Numbered from the stretch's first letter, positions 3,906-27,261 are shown. The stretch: DNA of 64,000 nucleotides from Bacilli bacterium (GCA_045226015.1 JBGVBY010000013.1:28908-92907); one strand, 5' to 3'. The notes: generated by a model from the letters alone, not told the origin. Program-made: numbers and translations.

Positions 3906-3915
3906 GAGGACTGCT

Positions 3916-4722: not shown

Positions 4723-4724
4723 AC

Positions 4725-6145: not shown

Positions 6146-6148
6146 TGT

Positions 6149-6935: not shown

Positions 6936-7095
6936 AGCAATTATCTTAATTATCGTTGTTGGAGTGTTGTTCATATTAGCACTCACATATTCAATCATCG
7001 TATCCGTTCAAATCCATAACGCGAAGAAACGCGCTGAACAAGAATTAGAACAAATGGACTTCTCACAACCAATCAAAGTCGAAAGAGAAGAATAA
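6925..7095 (+). CDS. Small single-pass membrane protein (56 aa, not in ORF track)
   Basis: MKIEAIILIIVVGVLFILALTYSIIVSVQIHNAKKRAEQELEQMDFSQPIKVEREE; fills gap in operon, preceded by GAGG. Confidence 0.6.
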   Translation: MKIEAIILIIVVGVLFILALTYSIIVSVQIHNAKKRAEQELEQMDFSQPIKVEREE

Positions 7096-7126
7096 CCGCC
7101 GCAATCGGTTGAAAGGAACGACTAAC

Positions 7127-7762: not shown

Positions 7763-7928
7763 TTTCAAATCAAATGACCGAGTTCTTGTCACCTTAATAG
7801 ATAAAGACGGAAAAGTTATTGAGAAACGACTTGTCAAAATGTCAATGATCAAGGTTGCATCATTATTCGATATCAAAAGCAACTTAGATCACGGAGACAA
7901 AATCATAGTGGAAAGCGAGGAACTATAA
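7755..7928 (+). CDS. Small hypothetical phage protein
   Basis: Operonic ORF with AGGTGG RBS. Confidence 0.5.
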   Translation: MANFKSNDRVLVTLIDKDGKVIEKRLVKMSMIKVASLFDIKSNLDHGDKIIVESEEL

Positions 7929-7929
7929 A

Positions 7930-8493: not shown

Positions 8494-9766
8494 TAACATT
8501 TACGACTTTGTCAGTCATCTCCAAAGAGCGTCAAGAACTATTTATGTCAGAACGTTAGATGTCGATGACGAAGAAGGCATTGAGATTACTACTTGGGCAG
8601 TTCGATTCAATAAGAAAGATGCTGAACCTAAATTCAAGAAAGCATTTATTCAAAGCGAAACTCGAACTCGAATGAATAGTGACTTCTACTTTGCTCCTCA
8701 ATGTGGCTGGCGAGTTATCTGGGAAAGAAAATACAGCGCTTATTTTGGTGAAGTTCATCCAGAAGATACTCTTTACGAAGGCGATTACAAAGTGCCACAT
8801 CCGTGGTGTGAATACCTATTCGACATAGATAACGTTCACGAGTTGATTCCAGAAACTAAATACTTCAAAGACTTGCCTTTAGAAAGTTTGATCGAATTCA
8901 TCCAAAAGTGGAGAAAGAACAAAGAAATCGAATTCATTTATAAAAATGACAAGACTCAACACCTTTGGAGCGATACTCGAATCTTCAAGCTCACTAAGGA
9001 AAAGCAAAAGAAAGTTCTTCCTTTGCTCAAGCAGGGATACTCGCTCAATGATGCTCTCGGAATCCTTAAATATGGTTCAGAGCAAGCGATGATATTTCAA
9101 AGAAAGTGCCAAGAAACTAAAAAAGTGCTTAAGAAACACAAATTCTCGAAAGAACTCGTTGAAGATATCACTCGCTACTTAATTAAACAATCAGCTGATG
9201 TTTGGACTTATGAAGACTATCTCAACGATTGCAAATACTTCAAACGAAGATTAACTGCTCGTGGTTGCCTATTTCCAAGAGATTTCAAATCCGCTCACGA
9301 TAATCTAGCTCGAATGGTTAGAGAAGAAGAACGCTTGAAATGGGAAAGACAAGAGGCAAAACGCGAAGCCCACGAACAAATGATCCTCGGAAAGTTTGAA
9401 AAGAAATCGTTGGAACTCGCGAATCTATTAAAAGACTTCCTGGGAATTAGTAAAGAGAATCTAACAATCTTTCTTCCAATGACTAAAAAAGACCTAATTG
9501 ACATAGGTGAAAAGTTAGAAATCTGTGTTGGTGGTGCTGGTTACGACTTAAAAGTTATTAACGGAACTTCCATCATCATTGCAGTTTATATGGATGACCA
9601 ACCGCTTGAATGCTGTGAATTAAGGCATAAAAGAGGTGGTGGTCTCCGAATAGAACAATTACGTGGTGCCAATAACCAAGACAGTGAAAGGCATCAAGAG
9701 TGCAAAGAATTAGTAGACACATTCATTCACGCTTACTCAAGCACTCAAACAATGGCACGAGCCTAG
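8483..9766 (+). CDS. PcfJ-like domain protein
   Basis: YEDYLNDC...LFPRDFKSAHD...P....DL..IGEKLEICVG..Y...Q.RGANN pattern. Confidence 0.75.
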   Translation: MKSNNIYDFVSHLQRASRTIYVRTLDVDDEEGIEITTWAVRFNKKDAEPKFKKAFIQSETRTRMNSDFYFAPQCGWRVIWERKYSAYFGEVHPEDTLYEGDYKVPHPWCEYLFDIDNVHELIPETKYFKDLPLESLIEFIQKWRKNKEIEFIYKNDKTQHLWSDTRIFKLTKEKQKKVLPLLKQGYSLNDALGILKYGSEQAMIFQRKCQETKKVLKKHKFSKELVEDITRYLIKQSADVWTYEDYLNDCKYFKRRLTARGCLFPRDFKSAHDNLARMVREEERLKWERQEAKREAHEQMILGKFEKKSLELANLLKDFLGISKENLTIFLPMTKKDLIDIGEKLEICVGGAGYDLKVINGTSIIIAVYMDDQPLECCELRHKRGGGLRIEQLRGANNQDSERHQECKELVDTFIHAYSSTQTMARA

Positions 9767-9779
9767 AAAGGAGCCAATT

Positions 9780-10442
9780 ATGGCAGAAAAATTAACAATC
9801 AAAATGGTTAACACGAAAGTTGACCAACTAGCAAGTAAGGTATCTGAACTCGCAGTTGCGATGAGAGGATATCTTGATGCAAAAGCACAAAACAAAGAAG
9901 CAAAAGAAAATCCAACAAAACCAGTTCCAAGAGACTTCACAAAGCCTGAATGGAGAACATTCCATTTCAAAGATGGCGATAAAGAAGTGGCTTGCGCTGA
10001 TGAAAACGGAGTCTTGGTGTTCCGTGATGCAATATTTGAAGCACCATTTGATGACAAAGACGATTGGAGAAAGTGCACAAACGTTTATGAAAACTGCACA
10101 TTAAAGAAACTCCTTGAAGAATGGTATGAGAAGAATGCTCCACAGGTCTTAAAGGACAATTACACGGTTGACCTATTAAATGACTACGAGATATTCGATC
10201 CTGACCAAATGTCTGAAGAATATAGAGTTGGAAAACAACTTGCTATGTTCAAAGACTGGCATAACCGCATTAAAGGTCTCGTTGGCGAAAGATACTCTAC
10301 TTGGTGGTGGACTAAGACCGCCTATCGTGGCGACGTCTCCTATGCGATCAGTGTCCACACGTCAGGTACCCGTTCCAACAGCTACGCCGACCCCTCTTAT
10401 GGCGTCGTCCCCTGCTTGAGACCAATTGAGCGCAGCGAGTAA
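9780..10442 (+). CDS. Second (remote) DGR target protein, C-terminal DUF6273/C-type-lectin-like domain
   Basis: C-terminal WWWTKTA...SYGVVPCL parallels the tail target WWLRTA...SYGVVPAC; 3' end carries VR2. Confidence 0.85.
   Translation: MAEKLTIKMVNTKVDQLASKVSELAVAMRGYLDAKAQNKEAKENPTKPVPRDFTKPEWRTFHFKDGDKEVACADENGVLVFRDAIFEAPFDDKDDWRKCTNVYENCTLKKLLEEWYEKNAPQVLKDNYTVDLLNDYEIFDPDQMSEEYRVGKQLAMFKDWHNRIKGLVGERYSTWWWTKTAYRGDVSYAISVHTSGTRSNSYADPSYGVVPCLRPIERSE
10317..10418 (+). repeat. DGR variable repeat VR2
   Basis: 102-nt ungapped match to TR (25305-25406, minus strand): 18 mismatches, 17 at TR adenines. Confidence 0.95.
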
Positions 10443-10444
10443 TT

Positions 10445-10460
10445 ACAATCGATAGATTGT
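10445..10460 (+). other. DGR-type hairpin downstream of VR2
   Basis: ACAATC-GATA-GATTGT, 2 nt after stop codon; same loop as the hairpins after VR1. Confidence 0.75.
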
Positions 10461-10469
10461 CGGACATTT

Positions 10470-10670
10470 ATGTCATTCGTAGGTGGTCTCAGTCATCTAA
10501 AGGAAGATGACAAACAAGAAATACTTTCCGAGATTAAATTCTTTCTTTCAAGCAAAGGATTTATCGATGGAATAGCACTATATGAAAGATTCGAAAGTGT
10601 ACTTGGAACTAAAGGCGAATTATCCGCGGAGGAGATTCGCCAGTTCCGAGAGAATAGGAGAAGAAGATGA
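10470..10670 (+). CDS. Hypothetical phage protein
   Basis: 66-aa operonic ORF. Confidence 0.5.
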   Translation: MSFVGGLSHLKEDDKQEILSEIKFFLSSKGFIDGIALYERFESVLGTKGELSAEEIRQFRENRRRR

Positions 10671-10957
10671 AAAACTACATTCACTTAGATGGTCAAGACA
10701 TTGATTTGGACATCATTAGTTCAACCCAAGACTTAGACAAAATCACAGATGCTTGTATTCGTATTATGGGTGCTGTGCTTGCTATAGGCACAAGCGGCAT
10801 CAAAGAAGACAACAAACGTGTTGAGTTCATTATGAATCAAGCTGGCAAAATTGGCGGTGGTATGGCGAGACAATCATTAACGATTATCGCTAACGAAAAG
10901 GCTTTGAGTGAAGAACCAAAGCCAGAAGAAGTAGTTGAGGACAACGCAAATGCTTAA
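10667..10957 (+). CDS. Hypothetical phage protein
   Basis: 96-aa ORF, ATGA overlap with upstream gene. Confidence 0.55.
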   Translation: MKNYIHLDGQDIDLDIISSTQDLDKITDACIRIMGAVLAIGTSGIKEDNKRVEFIMNQAGKIGGGMARQSLTIIANEKALSEEPKPEEVVEDNANA

Positions 10958-11357
10958 CAACTACACCATAACAATTGGTTTTATGCTCAAAGAACCTGAG
11001 CTTGAAGAAAACGAGAGTAAAGAGAAAGTCTGCATCTTCTCTCTTGTCACTCAAGATCACGGAAAAACTAAAGAAGTTCCGTGTATGGCGACCGGTAAGA
11101 CATGCGACACATTGCTTGTATACGGTCAAAAAGGCTCGTTTTGGGCTGTTGGAGGCATTTTCTATGAGTTTGTGGCTGATAACTCAAAAAAGAAAAAAAC
11201 AACGCTCAAATGCCTTGAAATTGAATTACTGAAAAAACCGGAAGTTCCTGGCATTGGCATTGAAGAATTCGTTGGTAAGTATGCACCTAAAGAAATTATC
11301 AAGCGCGCAAGAGAAAGAAGAGAAAAGAACAATGCTACTGAAAAAACAAGTTCTTGA
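10950..11357 (+). CDS. Divergent single-stranded DNA-binding (OB-fold) protein
   Basis: N..ITIGFM.KEPEL...FSL....EVPCMATGK.CD.L..Y.QKGS..AV.G resembles SSB strand order. Confidence 0.55.
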   Translation: MLNNYTITIGFMLKEPELEENESKEKVCIFSLVTQDHGKTKEVPCMATGKTCDTLLVYGQKGSFWAVGGIFYEFVADNSKKKKTTLKCLEIELLKKPEVPGIGIEEFVGKYAPKEIIKRARERREKNNATEKTSS

Positions 11358-11526
11358 TGGCGTTGCGCTATCTTCAGAAGAAATCAACGAAATGATGGAA
11401 ATGCTTAAAGAAGGCAAATACTACTTCTATGAAGTTCTCGAATACTACGGAATTAGTTATTACGAGTTCAAATGTTATAAGAAAGTCTACGAAGGGAAGG
11501 ACAAATTATATGAAAACATCAATTAA
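11332..11526 (+). CDS. Small hypothetical protein
   Basis: Operonic ORF, start refined to ATG 11332. Confidence 0.45.
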   Translation: MLLKKQVLDGVALSSEEINEMMEMLKEGKYYFYEVLEYYGISYYEFKCYKKVYEGKDKLYENIN

Positions 11527-11983
11527 ATTCACAATTCCAGGCGAACCATTTGGAAAGCAAAACCTTAGACCTAAAATCGTTTGTGGACATGCTAGAGCAT
11601 ACTCACCTAAAGAAAACAATATGTATATGGATCGCATTATTGGAATCTTAAACCAAAACATGGTATTCACTGAACCATTTATCTTTCCTAAAGGAACATC
11701 GGTGGCAATTACAATAACTGCCTTCTTCAAAATTCCTGATGGTAATTACAAGTATTACAAGAGTGAAAAACGTTCGCGTTATAACCAAGAAGGACAAGAT
11801 ATGCTTGCTGGAAAGATTAGACCAACCAAAAAACCTGATTGTGACAATATCAGTAAAGTCATATGCGATGCCATCTCTCATCAAGGTCGTGTTTGGTACG
11901 ACGACAACCAAGTTGTTGTTGACCTAATTATGAAATACTATGACACGAATCCACGAGTGGAAGTCATGATCGAGGAAATCTGA
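11510..11983 (+). CDS. rusA: RusA-family Holliday junction resolvase
   Basis: FTIPGEPFGKQ..RP, KPDCDNISKVICDAI, YDDNQVV, PRVEV motifs. Confidence 0.9.
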   Translation: MKTSIKFTIPGEPFGKQNLRPKIVCGHARAYSPKENNMYMDRIIGILNQNMVFTEPFIFPKGTSVAITITAFFKIPDGNYKYYKSEKRSRYNQEGQDMLAGKIRPTKKPDCDNISKVICDAISHQGRVWYDDNQVVVDLIMKYYDTNPRVEVMIEEI

Positions 11984-11984
11984 T

Positions 11985-12392
11985 ATGCAAAAGTGGATAG
12001 GTGTAGGGAAGATTGATGGCGAGCCAATGAAAGTCCAATATGGCAATCAAGAATGTTTGTTAATTTGGATTTGTTGCCCTCGCAGTTGGTCTCCAAAGAA
12101 TGAAGATAACATTCCGGTTATGTTCATCGGCAAACGAAAAAAAGCGCTTGAGCAAGCAGGCATAGATAAGTTCGATGGCACTCTTGTGTATGTGATTGGT
12201 GAAATCAGCTCACGAATCAAAATCATCGAACCGAAAGCAGTTAGCATTGGAGTTTGCGTATTCGCTACTTCAATCACATTCTGGGATACAAAGAGTATCT
12301 TGGATAAAACTAAATGTAGAGTAAATAACGAAGTCATATTTGACACATCCGGCATGGAAGAAATAGAGGTGATGATTGATGAAAAAGTTTAG
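11985..12392 (+). CDS. Second divergent SSB-like OB-fold protein
   Basis: MQKWIGVGKIDGEP.....NIPVMFIGK......G..VYVIGEI.SR...V.A.SI.F. Confidence 0.45.
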   Translation: MQKWIGVGKIDGEPMKVQYGNQECLLIWICCPRSWSPKNEDNIPVMFIGKRKKALEQAGIDKFDGTLVYVIGEISSRIKIIEPKAVSIGVCVFATSITFWDTKSILDKTKCRVNNEVIFDTSGMEEIEVMIDEKV

Positions 12393-12888
12393 TGAAATTG
12401 AAAAAGACTATAAGGCAAAACAGTTGAAATGGAAGACTCATATCCGTTTAGAACAAAACAAGTTCAAACGATTCTGGATGTGGGTGTGGTTCTTAATCGC
12501 ATTCCCATTCGTGTGGCTCTTCTATAACTGCCGAGATTGGCGAAGTCTGGTTTGTATCCTCGTCTCGTTTCTCCTATGGTCAGCAAGTGTATGGATTTGG
12601 TACCTATTAGCAGTTTTAACTGGCTGGAATACTGATACTGCAAAGTGGTTCATCGGTATCGGTAGTGCAGTTTGGATTTGGTGGGTAAGCCCAGTTGGTA
12701 GTCCATTCATCCTATTAGTTACGATCACTGCGATTGGAATAAAAGCATTATTCAACAAAATTAAAGAAAAACGACAAAAGAAACAACTTTTGCGAGAAAA
12801 TGCTAAAAAATGTCCATACAAAATTGAAGAAGATGAATTACCTGATTACAACCCAGAGTATATTCCAAAAGAGTGGAGAGAAAAGTAA
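12376..12888 (+). CDS. Membrane protein (about 3 hydrophobic segments)
   Basis: Trp-rich hydrophobic stretches. Confidence 0.6.
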   Translation: MMKKFSEIEKDYKAKQLKWKTHIRLEQNKFKRFWMWVWFLIAFPFVWLFYNCRDWRSLVCILVSFLLWSASVWIWYLLAVLTGWNTDTAKWFIGIGSAVWIWWVSPVGSPFILLVTITAIGIKALFNKIKEKRQKKQLLRENAKKCPYKIEEDELPDYNPEYIPKEWREK

Positions 12889-13061
12889 TGACTTGCCCGT
12901 GTAAAGACTGCTCCAAAAGAACCTCTGACTGCCACGGAAAATGTGCCGGTTATCAAGAGTGGTCAAAGTTAAATGAAGAAGCTCGCAACAAACGGAATGA
13001 AGCAAGTTTATCCGCTTATCTATCAAGACCGAAATATCGCAAACGAAGGAGAATAAGATGA
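12888..13061 (+). CDS. Small Cys-rich phage protein
   Basis: CPCKDC....DCHGKCAGYQEW. Confidence 0.6.
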   Translation: MTCPCKDCSKRTSDCHGKCAGYQEWSKLNEEARNKRNEASLSAYLSRPKYRKRRRIR

Positions 13062-13453
13062 ACAAAGATGGTAAACCGACCGATGTTCGAGATTACATTT
13101 CTCGCTACATTGAATTTCAAGAGCTGACAATTAGTGCTCAAGCTGAACTTGATGCATTGATTGCTGAGCAACAACATTTGATTCCAGCAATGGATCGTGT
13201 GAAAACCGCTGAATTAGAAGTGCGCATCACAAATGCTCGTACTTACTTAAGCAGGTTAAAAAAGATTATTAGTGACTGGGGTGATGCCTTAGCGGCTCTC
13301 GGTCAAACTTATAACAAAACAGAGTATGAAATGTTCAACATTCTGATTATCAAAGGCATACCGCCAAAGAAGACAAAGTGGGCATTACAAACCTGTTACA
13401 ACTTCCGCGCTAAAGTTTTTAAGGACATCGCGAGATTGGAGAAGAAAGAATGA
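13058..13453 (+). CDS. Hypothetical protein, possibly late-gene activator
   Basis: Helical N-terminus, HTH-like C-terminus, near end of early operon; assignment weak. Confidence 0.35.
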   Translation: MNKDGKPTDVRDYISRYIEFQELTISAQAELDALIAEQQHLIPAMDRVKTAELEVRITNARTYLSRLKKIISDWGDALAALGQTYNKTEYEMFNILIIKGIPPKKTKWALQTCYNFRAKVFKDIARLEKKE

Positions 13454-13815
13454 AATCGTTAGAAGAAATTAAAAAGATTATCAATTTGCAAATCATCCGT
13501 GAAGGCGAAGATGGATTCCACGCCATTTGGACTGACCCAGTGACTAGATATAGATATTCAATCATTCTGTCTTGGGGTGGTGGTTGGGAGCACTTCTCTA
13601 TCAATCCAATTAGCAAAAATAAAACTCCAGAGTGGGAGTTCATGTGCAAGATGAAAGAAATGTTCTTTAGAGATGATGAAGCGTGTGTTGAATATCATCC
13701 TAAGAAAGAAGATTATGTTGATCAATTGCATCATTGTCTTCATATCTGGAGACCAATTGATGAACCATTACCAGTACCGCCACCAATCTTTGTTGGAATA
13801 GGCAGAAAGGAATAA
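13450..13815 (+). CDS. Conserved phage protein of unknown function
   Basis: GWEHFSI....KTPEWEFMCKMKEMFF..DEACVEYHPKKEDYV..H.HCLHIWRP motif common in phages. Confidence 0.7.
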   Translation: MKSLEEIKKIINLQIIREGEDGFHAIWTDPVTRYRYSIILSWGGGWEHFSINPISKNKTPEWEFMCKMKEMFFRDDEACVEYHPKKEDYVDQLHHCLHIWRPIDEPLPVPPPIFVGIGRKE

Positions 13816-13817
13816 TT

Positions 13818-14144
13818 ATGAGCACACCTAAAATTGACTTAAAACAAGTTGTTGAAAAATGTGAAGGTTGTCTTAAACCCATCACAGTGAAAGAGGTGAC
13901 TGAAATAGCACAAGGAAGTTTATCTCTTCTCTATAATCAAGGAACAATCCTTAAAAGAGTTGAAAAGACTATTGGAGAACAAGACTGGAACATTCTCGTA
14001 ACAAGTGTACTAGGCACGTTCTTGAGCTCTCTATATGCTTCCACCGAATTAAACGGTGACTTAGGAAAAGCTGCTAAGTTTGGACAAGATATCGGCGCTA
14101 GTGGAATGGCTGTAAAAAGAGGAAATAAAGATGAAAATTCATAA
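13818..14144 (+). CDS. Hypothetical phage protein
   Basis: 108-aa operonic ORF. Confidence 0.55.
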   Translation: MSTPKIDLKQVVEKCEGCLKPITVKEVTEIAQGSLSLLYNQGTILKRVEKTIGEQDWNILVTSVLGTFLSSLYASTELNGDLGKAAKFGQDIGASGMAVKRGNKDENS

Positions 14145-14367
14145 TTGGCACACTCTTGCAGTATTAAGTAATCTTGCGTTCTTCGTAATGATGGTCGTGT
14201 TCCTCTTCGTGACTCAAAGAGACTTTGCTGAATATGACTATAGTGATTATCTACTTGTTCTATTGATAAGAGAAGGAATCATCTTACTTGTTCAAATTGG
14301 TTGGAACTTGCTCTTATATGCAATACCAAGATTCTTCTTACATCCTGAAAACAAAGAACCGAAATAA
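14131..14367 (+). CDS. Small two-pass membrane protein
   Basis: Two hydrophobic segments; last gene of early operon. Confidence 0.55.
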   Translation: MKIHNWHTLAVLSNLAFFVMMVVFLFVTQRDFAEYDYSDYLLVLLIREGIILLVQIGWNLLLYAIPRFFLHPENKEPK

Positions 14368-14394
14368 AAGGAAGGCATTAAGCCTTCTTTTTTT
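14367..14394. terminator. Bidirectional terminator between converging early and late operons
   Basis: GAAGGC-ATTAA-GCCTTC (14371-14387) with T7 downstream and A-rich upstream. Confidence 0.8.
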
Positions 14395-14400
14395 CCGTTC

Positions 14401-14571
14401 TTATTTACGTTTTCTAAGCAGTACGTTACCAGCTTCACCCCAACCAGCCATAACGATTATCCATAGAAATGGAATTGCGATGTATGTCTGACTTTTGAGG
14501 AAAACAAATGTTAACCATATGCCTAGTGCGAGTAATATGCCTGCTACAAGTATGAATCCAAATGCTTTCAT
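14401..14571 (-). CDS. Small two-TM protein with basic C-terminus, holin-like (56 aa, not in ORF track)
   Basis: MKAFGFILVAGILLALGIWLTFVFLKSQTYIAIPFLWIIVMAGWGEAGNVLLRKRK; last gene of late operon. Confidence 0.55.
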   Translation of the reverse strand: MKAFGFILVAGILLALGIWLTFVFLKSQTYIAIPFLWIIVMAGWGEAGNVLLRKRK

Positions 14572-14575
14572 AATC

Positions 14576-17500
14576 TTATAATATCATATCAATTTCTTCA
14601 TCAGTTAAGCCTTTATTCTTTAACCAACGAGTGAGCACTTGAATCTTATCTTTTCCGATATTCCATCCAGCAAGACGGTAAATAAGGTTTTTGATTTGTG
14701 GAGATACTCTCAAGTGAGTGACATATTTGACCGCATCTTCCTTATTAGTAAATGCTTTGACATTGAAGTAGTAGACATAGAATTCATCGTAACTAATACC
14801 GGCTTTGTTATAACATTGAGCCTTTGCATAGACTTTTTTGTTATAGATACGTAAAGCGGATTCAGCACCGAGAACTTCACGATAAACTTCTCTTTGAATG
14901 ACTGCCGCGTTCTCTTCATCGATAGTGTAGTTCTTAAGAGCTTCACCAATCTTCTTACAATTTTCAACTGCTTGCTTATATGCAGCGTTAATCATAACTT
15001 GAATGACACGAGATTCATCGTGTTTTTCTTTTGCTGACTTATCTGGATTATCATCAATCTCTTTGATTTGTTTACGTAAGTCCGCAATCTCATTATTACA
15101 AGTGTTGAGATAACTTGCTTGAATAGTAGCAATCGCGTCACCATCGGTCTTGTCATAAAGGATTTGTTCGCGATAATCGTAGAAGTCTTTAGAATATCTA
15201 CTCTTTTCGACTGGATCAATGAGATATTGGTCTTTAACGATTCTCTCTAATTTGTACCAACTTGCTTCATCAGAAGTTAATGGTAAGAGAATATCACCGA
15301 TAATACCTGTGTATTGGTCTAAAACATATTCAACTTTAAGTGGTGAGATTCCAAATACTTTACCAATGAAACGAGAGATATAAGATGTATCTTTTTCGTA
15401 TTGTTCTGTTGGTCTTGTGTTATCCCATTTAGAAGAAACGATTTGACCACCGTACCAAGTTCTATTTTTGGTAGCATCATCAATGGCTTGGAAGAATCCA
15501 AGAGAGATGCCGGTTCCAGAAATAGGAGAATTGGCTTCTAATAAGGCATATTTAAGCGCTTCTTCCATTGCGTTAGTATTTCCTTTAGCAGTATCAAATG
15601 CGCCTGTTACGATAGCGTTAAACGCACTAATGACACGACCTTTAGGAATACGGATGAATTGTTCACCAACTTTGATTAGGTAGTAGTTGTTCTTAATGCT
15701 TTGGTTGAGTGATTTATAGTCTTCATCATCCCAATAAAGCAATTCGTTGAGTAATTGAGTACCAATACCAAGAATTAACATCTTTAAGATAAGTTCAGCC
15801 CATTCTTTAGCACTCTTTGGAGCAATGAATGTTCTCATCATCTTTGTGAAACCTTGAATGTTGGCGTTCAAGAACAAACCAAATGTGTTATTGATTTGTC
15901 TTCCAACTGTACCAGAACGAGAGAAGTTCAATGTGATTTCGTGAGCTTCATAGACACCACGAGTCATAATTTGCTTGTTAGACATGCTATTTAGCCCTTT
16001 AGCACGTTCTTTATAGAGTTTATTAGTTGTGGCTAGGTATTGAGCATAACGTGTCGCTACTTCGATGATTTCATTAACACGCTCAATTGCTTTCCACGGC
16101 TTGACAACATATTCTAACCCTGAACTCATCTTCTTCTTATCGGTATAGATTTCAGTTGAAGTCATAACTGATGTTCCGATACCGCCACTAGCAACGAATG
16201 CTTGATATTTGGCATCGTTAGTAATAATGCTCTTATATGCTTGTGGAAGATTTCTTAAAACACTGGTCATACCAGTTGGAGAATAGAATGATGCATCCCA
16301 TAAGTCACGGATAGCGTTTCTTAATCCGAAGAAAGGATTGTAAGTGGTTAACAAGTTCTTTACAACCTTTTGTGCTTTAGCAATGAATTTCATTCCAGGA
16401 ATGTTAAGAAGAGTGTCATTATAAACACCAGCTAAGGCTTGTAAACCTTCCATTACATTGGCGTTAACCAAATAACTATGTGATTCGCCACCTTCATAAT
16501 ATGTAACCACTTGTCCATCAAGTGCTGGTCTAGTGAGATAATAAGTCATACTAGAATCAGTTGATCGTGGTAATTCTTCTTTCTTTAATTCTTCAGAAAC
16601 AACGTATTCATTGAGTTCACCATAACTTTTGCTTGCGTTAATCAATGTTTTAATTAACTCGTTCATAGCAACTTTTTGATGAATCTTGACTGTTTGCATT
16701 TGCATTGAATCAAACATATCTTTGATGACTAAATCACTGCCTTTAGCAAGTCTTAGTGTGCTTGATTGCATAGACATTGAAATACCAGCAGTTGGATTGA
16801 TAATCATTTCTCTATATGTTGGGACATAGTGAGAATAGTATTTTTTCATCCATTCATACGCTGACTTACTGAGATAACCACCTTCATATTGCATTCTTAA
16901 AAGTTCACGATTGTATTTCCAAACTTCTTCTCTCATATCCTTAAACATTGGATAATCAGCATCAATTTGTTCTAATCGAGCGTTAATATCTTCAGCATTG
17001 AGAAGTCTTAAATACTTTTTGACTTCGTTAAAGGTATCTAAAGCCTCTCCTGTAAGTTCTACGCTTCTTTCCATAGCAGTCTTGTGTGTCAACTCATTTA
17101 CAGTTGCTTCGTCCATACAGACGCCTTTTTCGATTGCTTCGGAAAGTAGTGGGAAATGTTCGCTAATCTTAACTAATAAGTCCGCTGGCATAGTTCTTGT
17201 TTCTAACCATTTGCCAAAGACTGTTTTTCTTTCTTTAGGCTCACTCTTTGAGAACTTTTCAATATCTTCGATAGATACTAAATCAGTGCCTAAAGAAGCA
17301 TTTAATCTATCCATTTCAACGTATAAAGCAAGAGATTCATAGAAATGACTCATTCCTTCTTCTAACTTTATTCCGTTGTCCTTAAAATACTTGTTTAATT
17401 CATCAACAATACCGTTTTTGCCGTTATAAAGACCTTTGGTATAGAATTCAACTTTATTTTCTTCAACACTTCTAGAGAAACCGTTTTGAGCAACGCTATT

Positions 17501-19807: not shown

Positions 19808-19866
19808 AATACTTAATTTTTGTTAAAATTTTTAACGATTTTCGATATTTAAGACGCGAAATTCGT

Positions 19867-20703
19867 CTATATTGAAATTTTTGGTCTTCTATTACCAACT
19901 AATGCGTTGTCGATGTAGAAGAGTTTTCCGTTATAGTACATAAGGTATTTTTGACCGACTTGTACTAAATCGCCATTCTTAGCACTGGTATAGAAGTTTT
20001 GAAGTTCATCCTTGTATTTTTGTGAACTACCAGTACCACGTTCGATCTCAATTTGATTTAATTCATATTTAACATCTTTGTTATTTAAGATGTCTTTGTA
20101 TCCAATACCATTACTGAGACCGACGGTTTCGTTAATCTTGTCAGCCCATTGACTATCAGCGTTAGCAAGATATCCACTGTATGAAGAGTAGTAGTAATCA
20201 AACATCTTCTTTTGGTCATCAGTGAAACTGTCATAGTATTCAGACTTGAGATAATCTAAATCTTCTACTGATGTGGCTTCTTGCATCATAGTCATTGCTG
20301 CTTGCCATCTATCGGTCTTTTGAGCTTCTTCATCAGCAACTCTCTGTGAAGCAATATCCATTAAGTTTGCTTGATGTGTTTCATCTGCACCCATAATGGC
20401 TCTATTGTAAGCACCAGCAATACCTGCTCTAGTGGATTCAGCCATACCTTGTCCAGAGAAACCAGCGTTAGCTAAAGAATTACCAACGTACTTTTGAGCT
20501 TGGTCTCTTGCAACAGATGCTTGAATCTTGCTAGAAAGCATATCCTTGTAGGATGTGTACTCAAGTGCATCGTACTTATCGCCACTGGTTAAACCATTAC
20601 TGGAACCTGTGCCACCTCCACTTGGATTACTTTCTGGACTGTTTGCTCCAATTGAATCGCCGAATGTTTTGACCCATTGATCTTTATTTGTCTGTACCGC
20701 CAT
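19867..20703 (-). CDS. Putative internal virion (ejection) protein
   Basis: Gly/Ser/Ala/Gln-rich low complexity (NAGFSGQGMAESTRAGI) directly upstream of the large ejection-type gene. Confidence 0.45.
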   Translation of the reverse strand: MAVQTNKDQWVKTFGDSIGANSPESNPSGGGTGSSNGLTSGDKYDALEYTSYKDMLSSKIQASVARDQAQKYVGNSLANAGFSGQGMAESTRAGIAGAYNRAIMGADETHQANLMDIASQRVADEEAQKTDRWQAAMTMMQEATSVEDLDYLKSEYYDSFTDDQKKMFDYYYSSYSGYLANADSQWADKINETVGLSNGIGYKDILNNKDVKYELNQIEIERGTGSSQKYKDELQNFYTSAKNGDLVQVGQKYLMYYNGKLFYIDNALVGNRRPKISI

Positions 20704-21823
20704 ATTCAATTTCCTCCTTATGATTTTCGATTAGTAGATTATTATCCTCTCCACTTGAGGGATCTATTACTTCAGGGACGATGACTTTTGCAGCCTCTTC
20801 CTCTTCTCTTCTATGAGCTTCTTCGATTCTTTCCTTATAAGTCTCTTGATAAGATTTAGGAATGAACTCTTTTAAGTCATAGTATTTGTTATATTCGTTA
20901 ATAACGCGGATTTTATCGCCAAGCCATTTATATAAGAAGTTGACGTTGGTTGAACCGGCAAAGCCACCGCTAATAAATCCGAATGTGGCACTTCCGATTC
21001 TGAAGATAAAATTCCATAATGCTTCAGCGGTTCCAACACCTTCGTTAATTTCAGTAACGAGAAGTGATGCTAATGTGATATAGATAATTCCACTGATGCC
21101 TTTTGCGATGAATGAACGTCTCATCGCTTTAATTCTTTCTCTATCAGTTGCTGGAGCAATTTCAAGAGATTCTAAGTTAGCACTTTTATTTCTATCCGCA
21201 GTGGTGTAGTACGCTGCAGTTTCGGCTTCAACTGTAACTGAGCCGTTTAAGACTTCTTCAACATAGAAGGCTAATGTGTCTCTAATTGCTGGAATCAAGA
21301 TTTCGGTTCCATCTTTTAGTTTTCTAACAATGTCTTCACCAACTTTTCCTGTTGGTTTTTCACCTTCTTTTAATCCACTGATAATTGGAATGTCAGTCTC
21401 GATAGCATAATCAACGATGATTTCGGCTTCCATACGTGACATACCGTGTTTAGTAAGATGTTTAATTTTCTTTTCTCTTACTTGCTTTTCGGCATACCAG
21501 GAGATGAATTGATCGAAGAATACAATTCTTCCGACTTCGACAAGTGTCTTGACTAGGCTATTGAAGAGTTCTCTTCTTTTGTTGTATTTGCCATCTTCTT
21601 TAGCTTTTAAGGTTTCATCAATTGCAATGAATCCTAGAACCATCATCACTAATGCTAATGCGTTATTGAAGATTGCTCTGGTTGCCCATTTGTTTGGATC
21701 AAAGTTGTTTGGAGAGAATACTAAGTTCCATACCCAAGAGCCGATAATGATGAATATAACCATCAATACGCCAATGGCGACGAAACCCATTTTAAGGATA
21801 TATTCAGGTTTCTTATTCTTCAT
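20684..21823 (-). CDS. Multi-pass membrane protein (2 TM - soluble domain - 2 TM)
   Basis: Hydrophobic segments at about aa 13-33, 52-70, 245-260, 270-290. Confidence 0.65.
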   Translation of the reverse strand: MKNKKPEYILKMGFVAIGVLMVIFIIIGSWVWNLVFSPNNFDPNKWATRAIFNNALALVMMVLGFIAIDETLKAKEDGKYNKRRELFNSLVKTLVEVGRIVFFDQFISWYAEKQVREKKIKHLTKHGMSRMEAEIIVDYAIETDIPIISGLKEGEKPTGKVGEDIVRKLKDGTEILIPAIRDTLAFYVEEVLNGSVTVEAETAAYYTTADRNKSANLESLEIAPATDRERIKAMRRSFIAKGISGIIYITLASLLVTEINEGVGTAEALWNFIFRIGSATFGFISGGFAGSTNVNFLYKWLGDKIRVINEYNKYYDLKEFIPKSYQETYKERIEEAHRREEEEAAKVIVPEVIDPSSGEDNNLLIENHKEEIEYGGTDK

Positions 21824-22085
21824 CTTCTCTCACCGCCTTTATTTTTTTATAAATGGATATAATCCAAAGGGCTAATACTGCTCCAGTAAGTAGAACTAGA
21901 GCGAACATACATGCCCAAGAAGATTTGAACCAAGCAATAACTGCTTCCCATCCTTCTGTAGCAACGTAGTAAGTAATCATTATGATTACAGCGACTAATG
22001 CTACTGTGAGAAGAATTTTAATTGTGGACATAACGGTCTTACTGATGTTGCCGTTTTTCTTCTTAAACTTATTTTTAGGTTTCAT
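21813..22085 (-). CDS. Two-pass membrane protein
   Basis: Basic N-terminus, two hydrophobic segments. Confidence 0.65.
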   Translation of the reverse strand: MKPKNKFKKKNGNISKTVMSTIKILLTVALVAVIIMITYYVATEGWEAVIAWFKSSWACMFALVLLTGAVLALWIISIYKKIKAVREDEE

Positions 22086-22636
22086 ACAATGTCAGCCTTT
22101 TCTTCTTTTCTGCGACGCTCTTCTTCTTTAACTTTACGTTCTTTTTCAGCAGCTTCTTTAGCATCTAACTCATCTCTAGCGTCGCGGTATAAGACTTGTT
22201 TTCTTCGCATTTCTTGAGTTAAACCGACATCTAATCCATAAGCTGCTGCCGCTCCTGCAAATTCACAACCTAGAATGAGAACTAAGTCATCAACAATTAC
22301 TTTGCAGAAATAGGCGAGTGCAAATGCCATACCAACGCCTAACACATAAGTTAACATAGTGGCTTTCTTCTCAACCTTTTCTTGATGTTTTGCTTTCTTA
22401 TACATCAAGACCGCTGATACAACGAGAGCAAGAATACAGCCAATAGTTAATCTAACAGATTCGTGAGTGTTCTCTACGAAGTCGAAGTATTCATTCCACT
22501 TAGCGCCAAACACTGCAACGATAGGAGTGATAATAGCCGCCCATTCACCGCCCTGACATGCCCAATAAGCATTGCGGTAGTATTTTCTAGGGCATCTAGT
22601 TTTAAGAGGTTCTTTTTTTGGTTTTTTGTTTGCCAT
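22082..22636 (-). CDS. Multi-pass membrane protein with charged C-terminal coiled coil
   Basis: 3-4 hydrophobic segments; GGAGGT RBS before ATG 22636. Confidence 0.65.
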   Translation of the reverse strand: MANKKPKKEPLKTRCPRKYYRNAYWACQGGEWAAIITPIVAVFGAKWNEYFDFVENTHESVRLTIGCILALVVSAVLMYKKAKHQEKVEKKATMLTYVLGVGMAFALAYFCKVIVDDLVLILGCEFAGAAAAYGLDVGLTQEMRRKQVLYRDARDELDAKEAAEKERKVKEEERRRKEEKADIV

Positions 22637-22647
22637 ATGCATACCTC

Positions 22648-23295
22648 CTATTTACTTGGTTTTTGCAAATATTTTTTGAATGTTTCTTCGCTAATACCAA
22701 GAGATGTTAACACTGCTGATTGAGAGAAAATTGTCATCAATAATTCTTTCATTTCTTTATTTTCAGCCGTGATTTGATCGTTCTTTTCACAAACTTCATT
22801 TAATTTCTGCTCGGTTAATTCGAGTGATTTAGATAATGTGCCCATAGTAGAAATCGCTTTGTTGTAATTTTCGTTTGTGATTTCGTAATCTTTTTTCAAC
22901 TTTTCAGCAAGTTCCTTGTTATCATCAACAATTCTTCTTGCTAGGGAAACTTCACCAATTGCTTTTTTGATGTTGCTTCTATTCAAAAGTGAAGGAACAA
23001 GAGAAACAACAACACCAATGACAGCACCTAATAGCGTGCCTAATGTTGTTCCAAAGATTTGGGTATCTCTGATTTCCTTGTATTTTGCATTTAATTCATC
23101 AAGAAGTTTTTGAATTTCATCTTGAGTTGGGTCTGTCGAACCCTCTTCAATGGTTTCAGCAGCTTGTTCACCTTCAGCGTAAACTACTGCAATTTGGCTG
23201 TCATATGAGTGATACATTGACATACCCGCGCACATGCCTAAGCCAGCACTAGCAAGCAGGCAGACGCCTATGAGTCCTAATGTTTTTTTCTTCAT
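22648..23295 (-). CDS. Signal-peptide/membrane-anchored coiled-coil protein
   Basis: MKKKTLGLIGVCLLASAGLG signal-like N-terminus, internal TM (GTTLGTLLGAVIGVVVSLV), heptad C-terminus. Confidence 0.6.
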   Translation of the reverse strand: MKKKTLGLIGVCLLASAGLGMCAGMSMYHSYDSQIAVVYAEGEQAAETIEEGSTDPTQDEIQKLLDELNAKYKEIRDTQIFGTTLGTLLGAVIGVVVSLVPSLLNRSNIKKAIGEVSLARRIVDDNKELAEKLKKDYEITNENYNKAISTMGTLSKSLELTEQKLNEVCEKNDQITAENKEMKELLMTIFSQSAVLTSLGISEETFKKYLQKPSK

Positions 23296-23900
23296 AAGAT
23301 TTCTCCTTTCAACTTATTAAAGTAATCTCTGAACATGGTTTTTGAATATTTAAGGTCATGTGCCTTTTGCAGTATCTTTAACTGCTTTTGAGTTAATTTG
23401 TGAGATTTATTCTCACATTTGAAGTAGAAGAGTAAGAAATTCCATAACCTCTTTTCTTCCATTGGGTACCAACCATACTTTTTGCTATCTTCAACATAAT
23501 TGAAGAAACATCGGTCATAGTTCTCTAATACCCTTTTGGCAACGTATTTGTCTTTGACAACATCGTGCCTTACAAAGTTCCTATCGCTTCCATAAACGAC
23601 TTTCATATCAGGTGATTCAGTAACGAAGTAGATCATCTTTTTATATTTAATGATGTCGTTCCATTCTTTTAACGTGTAGAACACACACTCCACGATATGT
23701 CCGTCAATGTCGAATTGCCTGGATGCATCCGCATTTTCATTCTTACTTCTTACAATGACTTTGAAGTCTATGTCTCCATAATCCTTAAGATATAGAGAAC
23801 TACCTTCTTGCAAGACACAAATGATTGAATGTAGTGGATATCCGATGGCACTTAGATTCGCGAGAAGCTCGGAGACGAACATATTAGTTATGTTCTTCAT
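23292..23900 (-). CDS. Putative Pol-beta-superfamily nucleotidyltransferase
   Basis: hGS-x(8)-DxD signature CVLQEGSSLYLKDYGDIDFKVIV plus a later beta-strand acidic residue (IVECVF). Confidence 0.6.
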   Translation of the reverse strand: MKNITNMFVSELLANLSAIGYPLHSIICVLQEGSSLYLKDYGDIDFKVIVRSKNENADASRQFDIDGHIVECVFYTLKEWNDIIKYKKMIYFVTESPDMKVVYGSDRNFVRHDVVKDKYVAKRVLENYDRCFFNYVEDSKKYGWYPMEEKRLWNFLLFYFKCENKSHKLTQKQLKILQKAHDLKYSKTMFRDYFNKLKGEIL

Positions 23901-24135
23901 TTACCTTTGCCTTAGCAGATTCAACGGCATTATTCCATTCAACGAATTCTGGTAAATCGCAGCCCATATGAGCAAGTGATTTTCTGATAATGGCAATTTC
24001 TTGTGTTAAGGTGTATTCCTTACGGATTTCACCAACGATAGCGATATCGTGTGGATTAACATCAGCGACTTTGCTCGCTGCGTCTCTTGCATCGTCAAGA
24101 GCTCTTTGATTTGGATTCTTTTTAATTAGTGACAT
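23884..24135 (-). CDS. Small tail-associated phage protein
   Basis: IRKEYTLTQEIAIIR.....EFVEWNNAVESAK resembles a family commonly found next to tail fibre genes. Confidence 0.5.
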   Translation of the reverse strand: MSLIKKNPNQRALDDARDAASKVADVNPHDIAIVGEIRKEYTLTQEIAIIRKSLAHMGCDLPEFVEWNNAVESAKAKVNEEHN

Positions 24136-25156
24136 ACCGTAATCTCCTTTCATAGTATTGGTATATTCGCTTTATCAAGTTGTAGTTATTACCTTTCTTG
24201 ATATGAGATATGTAACAGTCGACACATTGCTGAATTTTGGCAAGTGTCATTCTAGGATTTGAGATTTGCTTTTTAATTCTGCGCTTTGCTCTTTGGACAC
24301 TGGCTCTTTGAGCAGTCATTATGATTTTGCCTGTCTTGGAGTAGTGGTAACTGAATCCTAGAAACTTAGATGGTTGAGAGAGTTTAGCAATAAATGTTTT
24401 GTTCTTGTTGATTTTGAGACCTAATTTGTCGAGTTCTTCTTCAATGAACTTTAAGAGGTTGACCAGATGTTCTTTGCTGTGATGAATGATTTTGATGTCA
24501 TCCATGTATCGAATGTAGTATTTGATATGCCAACGTTCCTTGATGGCGTGATCTAAGTCGTTTAGCATTGATAACTCAATTAACTGAGATATTTGACTGC
24601 CAAGACCGATTCCTTCATCGCCTTTGAAACTGTCTATGATTTCAAACACTCTTTCTCTAGCCCAGTCATCACCGATTAGTTTTCCGATTTGTCTTTTGGC
24701 AATTTCGTGTTTAGTGCTACCAAAGAAATTTTTAATATCCAGTGATAGAACATATCCGTTTGCTTGATGATGTCGGAAAAACTTAATGAGATGGACTTTG
24801 AATCTTCTTCTAGCAAAATCTGTTCCTTTGCCTCTTTGACAAGCGCAATTGTCGTAGATGAAGTGTCTAACGACTTCTTTTGTTAGATAGTTATCGCAAA
24901 GTGACCTCTGGAATACTCTATCTTTTAATCTAGTTGCGACTATGTCTCTTACTTTAGGTTCTCTAACTTGGAATGTGATGTATCGGTCTATTTTATAGGT
25001 TCCGTTCATCAAAGAGTTGGATAATGCATATATGTTTTGGCAGCGATTCTTGTTATATCCAATAACGCTGTCTTTCCACATTACATTGTGATTACAATGA
25101 TTTAATGCTCTGTTCAATGCCTTATAAGAACATACAAGTTCTTTAATAGATGTCAT
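24122..25156 (-). CDS. DGR reverse transcriptase
   Basis: KVRDIVATRLKDRVFQ, NCACQRGKG, LDIKNFF, GIGLGSQISQ, YIRYMDD, FLG motifs; 344 aa with no maturase/endonuclease domain; TR and avd upstream. Confidence 0.95.
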   Translation of the reverse strand: MTSIKELVCSYKALNRALNHCNHNVMWKDSVIGYNKNRCQNIYALSNSLMNGTYKIDRYITFQVREPKVRDIVATRLKDRVFQRSLCDNYLTKEVVRHFIYDNCACQRGKGTDFARRRFKVHLIKFFRHHQANGYVLSLDIKNFFGSTKHEIAKRQIGKLIGDDWARERVFEIIDSFKGDEGIGLGSQISQLIELSMLNDLDHAIKERWHIKYYIRYMDDIKIIHHSKEHLVNLLKFIEEELDKLGLKINKNKTFIAKLSQPSKFLGFSYHYSKTGKIIMTAQRASVQRAKRRIKKQISNPRMTLAKIQQCVDCYISHIKKGNNYNLIKRIYQYYERRLRYVTN

Positions 25157-25304
25157 TGTTAATAGTGATAATTGTCATTGTCAGTTGGGCAAATCACATC
25201 AATGCACTTATTCTCCTAAATTAGGATTGGTCAATGACTCCTTGTGTAATTGTTTGGTCTTGATTTCTGTCATATAGACTTACTTTTAACAAATGGGTAT
25301 TAAA

Positions 25305-25406
25305 CAATCAGGGGACGACGCCATTAGAGTTGTTAGCGTTGTTGTTGTTACGGTTACCTGACGTGTTGACATTGATCGCATTGTTGACGTTGCCACGATT
25401 GGCGGT
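25305..25406 (-). ncRNA. DGR template repeat (TR)
   Basis: ACC GCC AAT CGT GGC AAC GTC AAC AAT ... AAC AAC AAC AAC GCT AAC AAC TCT AAT GGC GTC GTC CCC TGA TTG; 14 AAY codons; lies between avd and RT. Confidence 0.95.
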
Positions 25407-25415
25407 AAACAGTCA

Positions 25416-25832
25416 TTAACCATATCTTTTACTGTCGTTTTCAATCCAATTCTTCAAATCAGATTGAGCGGCAAGTATTAGACCTATCCAAGTTTTATGC
25501 TTTTTATCATTGATAGTTCCAAAGGTTTTATAAGCTACATCAATTAGAGTTAACATATTATGAGTTTCTGCGTACGCGAGTTTTTGAAACTTTCTACGTA
25601 ATTCGTAGTCACTTTTCTTAAACTCTTCTTTCACGTAAACAGAATTCGCTTTAATAGCGTTGGATAACATATTCATAGAACTATCGAGTATCTTTTGAGC
25701 AATTAACCAACGATATCTTTTAGGAATTACTTTCTCATTTGTGACTGCTTTAATGGTATAGGCATTTAGTTTGGTAACCGAAGTCCACCAAGCCATTTTA
25801 GTTTCGCCTCTTTCACTTTCAACGACTGACAT
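25416..25832 (-). CDS. avd: DGR accessory variability determinant (Avd-like four-helix bundle)
   Basis: 138 aa basic helical protein, IPKRYRWLIAQKI...AIKAN...R...Q..A...W...I pattern, between target and TR. Confidence 0.85.
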   Translation of the reverse strand: MSVVESERGETKMAWWTSVTKLNAYTIKAVTNEKVIPKRYRWLIAQKILDSSMNMLSNAIKANSVYVKEEFKKSDYELRRKFQKLAYAETHNMLTLIDVAYKTFGTINDKKHKTWIGLILAAQSDLKNWIENDSKRYG

Positions 25833-25868
25833 TCAGTGCATTATCTCTCCTTTCTTCTAAGATTTTTT

Positions 25869-25910
25869 ACACTCTATCGAGTGTTATTTATCAAACTACC
25901 TATCGGTAGT
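25869..25910 (-). other. Two tandem GATA-loop hairpins downstream of VR1
   Basis: Minus strand ACTACC-GATA-GGTAGT (25895-25910) and ACACTC-GATA-GAGTGT (25869-25884). Confidence 0.8.
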
Positions 25911-25917
25911 AATGATT

Positions 25918-27243
25918 TTATTCTTCAGCAGAATCTGCTGAGATGACACAAGCGGGGACGACGCCATAAGAGCCGTTAGCGCCGTAGTAGTAACGGGTAC
26001 CTGACGGGACGACATAGACCGCATAGTGGACGTGGCCACGAAAGGCGGTTCTCAACCACCAATAGCCGTAACTTGACCCAACAATTTTCTTACGAAGATT
26101 GTTTTGGTCAGTGCTATTGTCACTAGCGCTTAATCCGTTTGTAAATAAGGCAAGCCTTGTATCGCTTTCATCCGCGTCTGTAGAGAAGTTAACGTCCTTA
26201 CTACAAAGTAGGAAGAATTTATCGGTGAAATTATGTGCGCCTGTATTTCCGTAAGTGCCATTTGTGTTATCTTTCCAAACCTTATTTTCGGTGGATAAGA
26301 TATCTAAGAATGCTGGATCAATACCGTGCATAAATGGAACGCCAGCGTGGTTGCTTGGTCTTAAATCCCATTTAGTTTGTGGACTCCACCAGCCTGAACC
26401 GGTACCATTGAGATATTGTCTAATTGCGGATTCCATATAGTTATTGGAACCGTAAGAGACTCTATCGTTATGATTCTCACAACCAGAAGCGGTTAAGTCG
26501 CCATCACAATCAGTTACATCAGCAACGATTGCTAATCCGCTTTCAACGGATGCTCTATCTGCGCCATAGGTGGTAACAGTCACGCTTGTAGAAAGAGTGG
26601 TGTTGCTTGGTTTAGCACAATAGAATGGTTGAGTTGCGGTGAATGATAATGTGGAAGAGATTTTGTATTTACCTGCTGGTAATTGGCTTCCATCAGCTGC
26701 AGCCCATTTTGCTTCTTGAGCATCAAATTGCATTGAGATGAATGCATCGTGCATAACAAGTGTTAACTTGTCATTTTCAACGTGGGCGATATCGAACACT
26801 AATTCACTTGCGCTTTCGTGAACGGTAATGGTGTCATCAACACTTGGTGTTCCAGTAACAACAATGCCATATTCACTTAAAGTAACGAGTGCTCCGTGAT
26901 TGTCTTTCCAACCATCAGCGGTGTAGGTAAACACATAATCAATGTTTCCTGCTTCGTGTTCTTTTTCTAAGAATGTGGCTTCTGTGAACGCGATTGATAA
27001 ATCGTTGTTGCTTGGAGTGACAAGAATTGAATTTTCTTTTTCAACTGTGATTTGATCACCGACATCGAAGTAACTCTTGCCTTTGCCAGCATTAAGAATT
27101 TCCTTAATTCTCGCGAATGTCATAACACTTCCGTTGAAATCAAGATTCAAACCCATTAAAGCATTGGCAAGTGTTGCTCTTAGTTTCGCCTGTTCTTCTT
27201 TGTAGACTTTTGCGCCTAACATTTCCTTAAAAATTTCAGACAT
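25918..27243 (-). CDS. Primary DGR target: tail/receptor-binding protein with C-terminal DUF6273/C-type-lectin-like domain
   Basis: YGSNNYMESAIRQYLN...KFFLL...WWLRTA...GVVPACVI; in tail module; VR1 at 3' end. Confidence 0.85.
   Translation of the reverse strand: MSEIFKEMLGAKVYKEEQAKLRATLANALMGLNLDFNGSVMTFARIKEILNAGKGKSYFDVGDQITVEKENSILVTPSNNDLSIAFTEATFLEKEHEAGNIDYVFTYTADGWKDNHGALVTLSEYGIVVTGTPSVDDTITVHESASELVFDIAHVENDKLTLVMHDAFISMQFDAQEAKWAAADGSQLPAGKYKISSTLSFTATQPFYCAKPSNTTLSTSVTVTTYGADRASVESGLAIVADVTDCDGDLTASGCENHNDRVSYGSNNYMESAIRQYLNGTGSGWWSPQTKWDLRPSNHAGVPFMHGIDPAFLDILSTENKVWKDNTNGTYGNTGAHNFTDKFFLLCSKDVNFSTDADESDTRLALFTNGLSASDNSTDQNNLRKKIVGSSYGYWWLRTAFRGHVHYAVYVVPSGTRYYYGANGSYGVVPACVISADSAEE
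25954..26049 (-). repeat. DGR variable repeat VR1
   Basis: 96-nt ungapped match to TR with 19 mismatches, all at TR adenines. Confidence 0.97.
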
Positions 27244-27261
27244 AATTTAGTTCTCCTTTCT

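Follow-up and report, generated by a model that had tools for sequence, protein, structure and literature searches.

The window analyzed here is a stretch of 64,000 nucleotides (nt) from a Bacilli bacterium (GCA_045226015.1 JBGVBY010000013.1:28908-92907), and it carries a prophage of approximately 47 kb that encodes a diversity-generating retroelement (DGR). A single template repeat (TR) of this element matches two variable repeats, VR1 and VR2, located at the 3' ends of two different target genes, T1 and T2. T1 is part of the late (virion) operon and adjoins the DGR cassette, in which the order on the minus strand is T1, the accessory gene avd, TR, and the reverse transcriptase (RT) gene. T2 lies approximately 15 kb away from the cassette, on the opposite strand and outside the virion module, among the recombination and replication genes of the early operon. 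The early (plus) and late (minus) operons are convergent. The features of the window are collected in Table 1.

Table 1. Prophage and DGR features, with positions counted from the first nucleotide of the window (aa, amino acids).
Feature	Position	Strand	Description and basis
Integrase	924-2069	minus	
CI-like repressor	2207-2623	minus	
Early/recombination-replication operon	2710-14367	plus	RecE/YqaJ-like exonuclease, RecT, DnaD-like loader, PcfK/PcfJ, T2, SSB-like, RusA, unknowns; PHROG and Pfam
PcfJ	8345-9766	plus	early operon
T2	9780-10442	plus	220 aa; N-terminal helix, linker, DUF6273/C-type-lectin-like domain; Pfam DUF6273 E 1.1e-8; phrog_9958 E 1.6e-11
VR2	10317-10418	plus	3' end of T2; gap-free; 17/18 mismatches at TR adenines
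VR2 hairpin	10445-10460	plus	ACAATC-GATA-GATTGT; putative DGR target-recognition element; sequence and folding
SSB-like gene	10935-11357	plus	early operon
RusA	11429-11983	plus	early operon
Late/virion operon	14576-43856	minus	terminase, portal, major head protein, 2240-aa protein, tail-fibre-like gene, T1, Avd, TR, RT, ..., 1743-aa protein; PHROG matches
RT	24122-25156	minus	344 aa; Pfam RVT_1 E 1e-20; phrog_1423 E 3.7e-79
TR	25305-25406	minus	adenine-rich, AAY at variable codons; between avd and RT; gap-free alignment
Avd	25416-25832	minus	138 aa; phrog_3206 'Avd protein of DGR' E 3.6e-12
VR1 hairpins	25869-25910	minus	ACACTC-GATA-GAGTGT (25869-25884) and ACTACC-GATA-GGTAGT (25895-25910); sequence and folding
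T1	25918-27243	minus	441 aa; beta-rich N-terminal part, C-terminal DUF6273; Pfam DUF6273 E 3.3e-16
VR1	25954-26049	minus	3' end of T1; gap-free; 19/19 mismatches at TR adenines

The DGR of the window is of the canonical phage type, consisting of target, Avd, TR, and RT. The RT, encoded by the only RT gene in the whole 1.17-Mb assembly, displays the DGR-type [I/L/V]GxxxSQ and YxDD motifs in the form of LGSQISQ at residue 185 and YMDD at residue 217. NCBIfam has no DGR-RT model, and all other RT classes of that collection scored far under their cut-offs. Avd was recognized through PHROG and falls below the cut-offs of Pfam bAvd (E 1e-4) and NCBIfam DivGenRetAVD (E 6e-4). Both VRs sit at the ends of DUF6273 domains, described as C-lec-like (PMC10743442), in keeping with the C-terminal VR in a C-type-lectin-fold (or Ig) target that is characteristic of DGRs.

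When the TR was compared with the assembly by BLASTN, VR1 and VR2 were its sole extra copies (E 1e-24 and 7e-21). The initial annotation had described both as gap-free alignments with mismatches at TR adenines, and this was borne out, as were its examples of codons that had been altered differently in the two repeats: codon 14 is AAC in the TR, GTC in VR1, and CAC in VR2, and codon 26 is AAC, GGC, and CCC, respectively. As the TR core contains 32 adenines in 98 nt, the probability that all VR1 mismatches fall on adenines by chance is approximately 6e-10 by simple arithmetic. The lone non-adenine mismatch of VR2 is a silent T>C change (GCT>GCC). A third VR elsewhere was considered and rejected, as the third DUF6273 gene, located on host contig C1 (C1:129407-129916; L001 1495-2592, minus), has no TR match. 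Its product of 365 aa starts with a lipoprotein-type signal (…LLLSSC) and represents a relative of the domain that is exported and not diversified.

TR, VR1, and VR2 all contain GGCGTCGTCCCC, a GC-rich 3' end resembling the initiation of mutagenic homing (IMH) sequence, and the homology with the TR stops a few bases beyond it. Hairpins with a 6-bp stem and a G(A/G)TA loop follow every VR1, and they follow VR2 in the window as well as in the related contigs L005, L006/L007, L009, and L028. The VR2 hairpin of the window starts 3 nt past the T2 stop codon, and its stem is kept in relatives by compensatory changes (ACAATC/GATTGT to ACACTC/GAGTGT), with either GATA or GGTA as the loop. Both hairpins on the VR1 side are conserved in L011, L016, and L029. 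Downstream of the TR, no G(A/G)TA hairpin was found by sequence and folding in the window or at the TRs of relatives. The combination of an IMH-like end and a downstream hairpin at both VRs, absent at the TR, thus represents the putative cis signals of DGR homing. It agrees, at the level of sequence, with the target-recognition rule of BPP-1, which requires the IMH plus a downstream hairpin or cruciform (Guo et al. 2011, PMC3240598).

VR2 might nevertheless be a fossil of an old duplication or of a single past homing event that is no longer diversified, a view to which its one non-adenine mismatch would lend itself. Natural variants argue strongly against it. A protein search delivered 32 relatives of T2, and the cluster at ≥90% identity comprises 23 members including the window protein, 15 of which were aligned. 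Among these 15 variants, only 16 of the 167 scaffold columns vary, while each AAY codon of the TR shows 5-10 different residues; codons without a TR adenine are invariant in VR2, with the exception of one frameshifted member. In pairwise Nei-Gojobori comparisons, the ratio of nonsynonymous to synonymous differences (pN/pS) for residues 1-175 is approximately 0.04-0.11, and T2 outside the VR is under purifying selection; for VR2, pN is 0.18-0.20 versus a pS of 0-0.04. At the DNA level, the VR2 mismatches of relatives lie at TR adenines in 14/14 (L005), 20/20 (L023), 16/16 (L006), and 16/16 (L009) cases. Two near-complete genomes contain TR, VR1, and VR2 together, namely IMGVR_UViG_3300022401_000008, with 16/16 and 16/16 adenine mismatches, and Logan SRR33322342_55223, with 18/18 and 17/17, each over a 96-nt core. 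Equal hypervariability is seen in a second T2 subfamily, which is more distant (46-52% identity).

Furthermore, the lineage possesses two TR variants with either C or T at core position 86, and the same base is found in VR1 and VR2 of the cognate genomes, which we read as directly reflecting a transfer from the TR into either VR. With 23 distinct VR2 variants on an almost invariant scaffold, adenine-only differences in six independent relatives, an intact IMH-like end and hairpin, a TR polymorphism copied into VR2, and two targets that are unrelated beyond the VR, the fossil interpretation appears effectively refuted at the level of the lineage. The comparison of related phages that the initial annotation had proposed therefore revealed adenine-specific variation in VR2, confined to the AAY codons of the TR, and judged from these between-sample variants, VR2 diversification appears to be active in nature.

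Some irregular sequences were encountered at VR2 as well. The contig of L004 ends at 7773, which corresponds to residue 181 of its T2 homologue and hence to the first variable codon, and the L008 contig ends 41 nt past its T2 homologue. Breaks of this kind, at or shortly beyond VR2, are what assemblers produce where a site is hypervariable within a sample. One protein of the ≥90% cluster, P0037, is frameshifted and has a truncated C terminus from inside the VR (…SALSALLASSPA), which could be either a homing indel or an assembly error.

Apart from their repeats, the two targets have little in common. BLAST similarity between T1 and T2 is confined to a stretch of 63 aa at the VR, so T2 is not a recent copy of T1; a recent duplication was accordingly rejected as the origin of T2, and the proposal of two independently diversified targets is supported. 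T1 directly follows a tail-fibre-like gene, and in other phages BppU_N baseplate anchors or collagen are found fused to its homologues, which makes a role in the tail or an appendage a reasonable assumption. The earlier designation of T1 as a tail protein is therefore sensible in view of its neighbor and its BppU_N-fused homologues, with the role itself being deduced from these. The AlphaFold model of T1 has a predicted local distance difference test (pLDDT) score of 82, and the model of T2 one of 78.5. In the latter, a helix (residues 7-36) is followed by a disordered linker (34-47) and a globular domain; together with the lack of a signal peptide, read from the sequence, this confirms the helical N terminus and the missing export signal that had been noted for T2. 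NCBIfam was uninformative for T1 and T2, and searching PDB sequences with T1 or the T2 profile returned nothing useful.

The genomic position of T2 between pcfJ on one side and the SSB-like and RusA genes on the other, in the replication operon, is as originally described. T2 starts 13 nt past pcfJ, behind an AAAGGAG ribosome-binding site; the early operon leaves little space between its genes, and it contains no terminator-like site on the plus strand. Because of this packing, the short gap to pcfJ, and the lack of an internal terminator-like site, T2 is likely cotranscribed with the early genes.

This placement is kept in relatives. T2 homologues were found in an early-type operon in every context fetched, across several phage backbones. 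In the close relatives L005, L023, and L028, T2 occupies a matching early operon. L006/L007 carry the homologue in a different early region, together with RusA and an N6/N4 methylase, and in the L008/L026 backbone, which has HNH and DNA methylases, it follows RusA, with DNA methyltransferase genes on its upstream side. Directly 3' of the hypervariable T2 homologue of this backbone, a homologue of Tad5, a type I Thoeris inhibitor, was identified with Pfam (L026 10853-11539 and L027 884-1570; E 2.9e-14, above the cut-off). In the unrelated phage L024, the T2 homologue is accompanied by DprA-like, FtsH-like, MoxR/VWA, and SNF2 genes and is divergent from the terminase. Finally, a complete 37.9-kb phage with terminal repeats harbors a 41%-identical T2 homologue among its early genes and has no RT. 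In the T2 homologue kept by the DGR-less phage L010 (9902-11166; IMGVR_UViG_3300026549_000017, complete, no RT), the first ~25 residues (MGMRAILISIRPEWVKKILNG…) repeat the N terminus of the next open reading frame (ORF) (MKKAILISIRPEWVAKILNG…), which suggests a local partial duplication or fusion.

The family itself is large. An exhaustive search with a hidden Markov model of the T2 profile yielded 277 clusters, mostly of 150-330 aa, and a signal peptide was present in 0/30 inspected homologues. Many members end in Lys-rich basic tails. Among the longer homologues, the family representatives P0178, P0184, P0187, and P0203 share an unannotated N-terminal module of ~60 aa (…Y[IV]N…T.C…GD.[YW][DN]…G…A), and the extra N-terminal domains of longer homologues gave no Pfam match. 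A megablast of positions 8000-28000 and a tblastn of T2 against a collection of annotated phages found no match, and scanning species genomes with the T2 profile revealed no relative.

The most plausible explanation of these observations is as follows. The TR RNA would be copied by the error-prone RT, whereby adenines would be misread, and the mutated complementary DNA would replace two separate variable repeats: VR1 in the DUF6273 protein of the virion module adjoining the cassette, and VR2 in T2 of the early operon, 15 kb off and on the other strand. T2 would be cotranscribed with the early genes and remain soluble. A two-target DGR in combination with the early-operon placement of T2 is considered very probable, and the two-target mechanism taken alone, whose probability ranges from very high to close to certain, is as secure as sequence analysis allows.

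What T2 does is a different matter. With a slight preference, it may tentatively be viewed as an early-expressed, soluble, and randomizable binding module that acts inside the infected cell in a phage-host conflict, because its early-operon placement is conserved across backbones, an export signal is lacking, anti-defence genes are found beside it in relatives, and it persists without a DGR. The signal-less T2 homologues differ in this respect from the host's own DUF6273 protein with its lipoprotein signal, and a homologue bearing a helix-turn-helix (HTH), the Tad5 neighbor, and the DGR-less phage that keeps an early T2 homologue point in the same direction.

Several observations weigh against such an intracellular role. 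No recognizable anti-defence gene lies beside T2 in the early operon of the window according to Pfam, PHROG, and PADLOC, and PADLOC gave no match for T2 itself or its neighbors. No neighboring gene of T2 is conserved across the examined backbones. The C-terminal HTH of the one homologue is weak, with seven HTH families matching the same segment, all of them below the Pfam thresholds. The promoter and terminator scan of the window showed no enrichment over shuffled sequences, and the promoters were uninformative. The sole experimentally characterized phage DGR target, Mtd of BPP-1, is a tail-fibre receptor-binding protein (PMC8008677). Last, outside the small T2-type proteins, which have no export signal, the DUF6273 domain is typically extracellular or virion-borne.

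Since DUF6273 is typical of extracellular and virion proteins, T2 may also act outside the cell, either as a virion-attached accessory adhesin or second receptor-binding protein that docks or trimerizes via its N-terminal helix, or as a soluble lectin released upon lysis. The DGR would then tune two surface-recognition proteins, a possibility that we regard as nearly as likely as the intracellular one. Every long relative of the DUF6273 domain fits this picture in looking extracellular or virion-borne, with BppU_N, collagen, a pilin N-methylation motif (N_methyl), BspA leucine-rich repeats, or a lipoprotein signal; the pilin motif and the leucine-rich repeats occur in long relatives of weaker similarity. 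So do the structure comparisons: the models of T1 and T2 both best match the same domain of the secreted T. ramosa immunoglobulin A peptidase, and T2 additionally shows weak matches in the PDB to collectin neck plus carbohydrate-recognition domains, in which a helix precedes a lectin domain. When BFVD was searched with the T2 fold, numerous small DUF6273 proteins of phages were matched, with E values down to 1e-8. Small DUF6273 targets of the Toutatis and nd4 type have been interpreted as receptor-binding by their authors (10.1101/2024.10.15.618418; PMC10743442), and virion proteins require no signal peptide. On the other hand, in the backbones examined the gene belongs to the early operon and is oriented opposite to the virion genes; some homologues consist of the domain only (160-180 aa) without an obvious anchoring segment; and N-terminal segments are freely swapped among otherwise close homologues.

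T2 could also protect the lysogen or infected cell from other phages as a hypervariable sensor or blocker (superinfection exclusion or defence), comparable to the sensors that DGRs diversify in cellular conflict systems. Bacteria do possess intracellular C-lectin sensors diversified by DGRs (PMC10907252), T2 lacks a signal and resides on a prophage, and its homologue persists in a phage without DGR. Yet the operon that has T2 in its middle faces the CI-like repressor, so that T2 is expected to be switched off in the lysogen; moreover, T2 has no fused effector domain and was not recognized by PADLOC, and this function is considered improbable.

Returning to T2 as an early binding module aimed at the host, it is conceivable, though doubtful, that small signal-less DUF6273 proteins of early operons form a recurrent class of phage 'intracellular antibodies'. 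If true, each incoming genome would express its own DGR-randomized binder early in order to neutralize host proteins that vary, defence sensors or effectors for example, and genotype and phenotype of this early binder would be linked in cis, unlike those of virion proteins. Such binders would turn up in backbones unrelated to one another, among them this prophage group and Toutatisvirus, and, where the DGR is lost, persist as ordinary early genes. The usual explanation of phage DGRs is receptor switching; a conserved second target in an early operon suggests that the mutagenic engine may tune something besides the virion. The lineage offers a suitable test case: its compact protein of 220 aa has a confident fold model, the VR of this protein occurs in dozens of natural versions while the scaffold stays invariant, the cis elements are clear, some relatives have the DGR and others lack it, and one subfamily sits beside a Thoeris-inhibitor homologue.

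Some further features of the prophage deserve mention. A tRNA-Gly(TCC) gene at 47989-48062 (minus) is located ~47 kb from the integrase, a distance that fits the 46-48.5 kb of related complete phage contigs, and it is probably the integration site. Attachment repeats between the integrase end and 42-56 kb were searched for, and none longer than 12 nt was found. The late operon is closed by the ORF of 1743 aa (14576-19807, minus), which has no PHROG match. Its orthologues in L005, L023, and L029 carry the Pfam domain LPD38 (large polyvalent-protein-associated domain), and L006/L007 encode an MPTase-PolyVal protein at the equivalent place. The 1743-aa product may hence be an injected polyvalent protein.

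A distal, non-structural second DGR target is an already published concept, for which the window provides a new host lineage, and the novelty implied by the initial annotation can thus not be upheld. The same idea was put forward for Quimbyvirus, whose distal, opposite-strand, and non-structural second target was proposed by the authors to act in the conflict between phage and host (Benler et al. 2021, Microbiome 9:78, PMC8008677). Like the window, Quimbyvirus has one TR and two C-type-lectin targets, one following the tail-fibre genes and the other distal on the opposite strand. It differs in that its second target is found among methyltransferases and counter-defence genes, whereas T2 of the window lies among recombination and replication genes; moreover, it is a Bacteroides phage with an RT in three overlapping frames (PMC8008677), and it is the layout by which its target is likened to T2. 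In four induced human-gut prophages, too, a second VR lies at a distance, close to genes of counter-defence (Dahlman et al., Nature 2025, PMC12629997). They originate from human gut isolates, most DGR-bearing species there being Bacteroidota phages (PMC12629997), and the resemblance to the window is again one of layout. A counter-defence neighborhood is not recognizable at T2 of the window, but relatives possess DNA methyltransferases upstream and the Tad5 homologue directly downstream.

A remote small DUF6273 target has also been reported in the Faecalibacterium phages Toutatis and Lelie (Egorov et al. 2024, bioRxiv 10.1101/2024.10.15.618418; PMC11792537), and in Toutatis it is a homologous early-region target. 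In the FP_Toutatis record, the TR at ~49076-49180 matches a VR at 11932-12035 in gp24 (YP_009797461), a DUF6273 protein of 215 aa whose gene has early genes around it and precedes those of the replication initiator and antiterminator Q, and that shows weak homology to T2 (27% identity over 153 aa, E 3e-7, BLASTP). Toutatis and the window thus share a small DUF6273 target with a C-terminal VR far from the cassette, and the first target of Toutatis also carries the annotation 'Hoc-like'/DUF6273. Unlike the window prophage, Toutatis is a myovirus of a Clostridia host, its target is located on the late-gene strand, and ~40 residues extend beyond the VR. Its authors read gp24 as receptor-binding and do not discuss the early-region context (10.1101/2024.10.15.618418). 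Taken together with these systems, the window extends the phenomenon from phages of human-gut Bacteroidota and Clostridia to prophages of small-genome bacteria.

Other systems resemble individual components. The second targets nd4_tgt2 and nd12_tgt2 are, like T2, single DUF6273 globules with short helices, and both VRs of these DGRs are diversified independently (Baykov et al. 2023, PMC10743442); in contrast to the window, both targets reside within the DGR cassette and are neither remote nor part of an early operon. BPP-1 (mtd-avd-TR-brt) agrees with the window in cassette order, adenine mutagenesis, the GC-rich IMH, and the downstream hairpin or cruciform with a 4-nt loop, and differs by its single target, the tail-fibre tip protein Mtd, and by the sequence and stem length of its hairpin (PMC3240598). 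Finally, the DGRs of cellular conflict systems are chromosomal and bacterial, with targets fused to conflict-system domains, whereas T2 is phage-encoded and has no effector domain; what they have in common with the intracellular role considered here for T2 is that a C-lectin randomized by a DGR is able to function intracellularly (Dore et al. 2024, PMC10907252).

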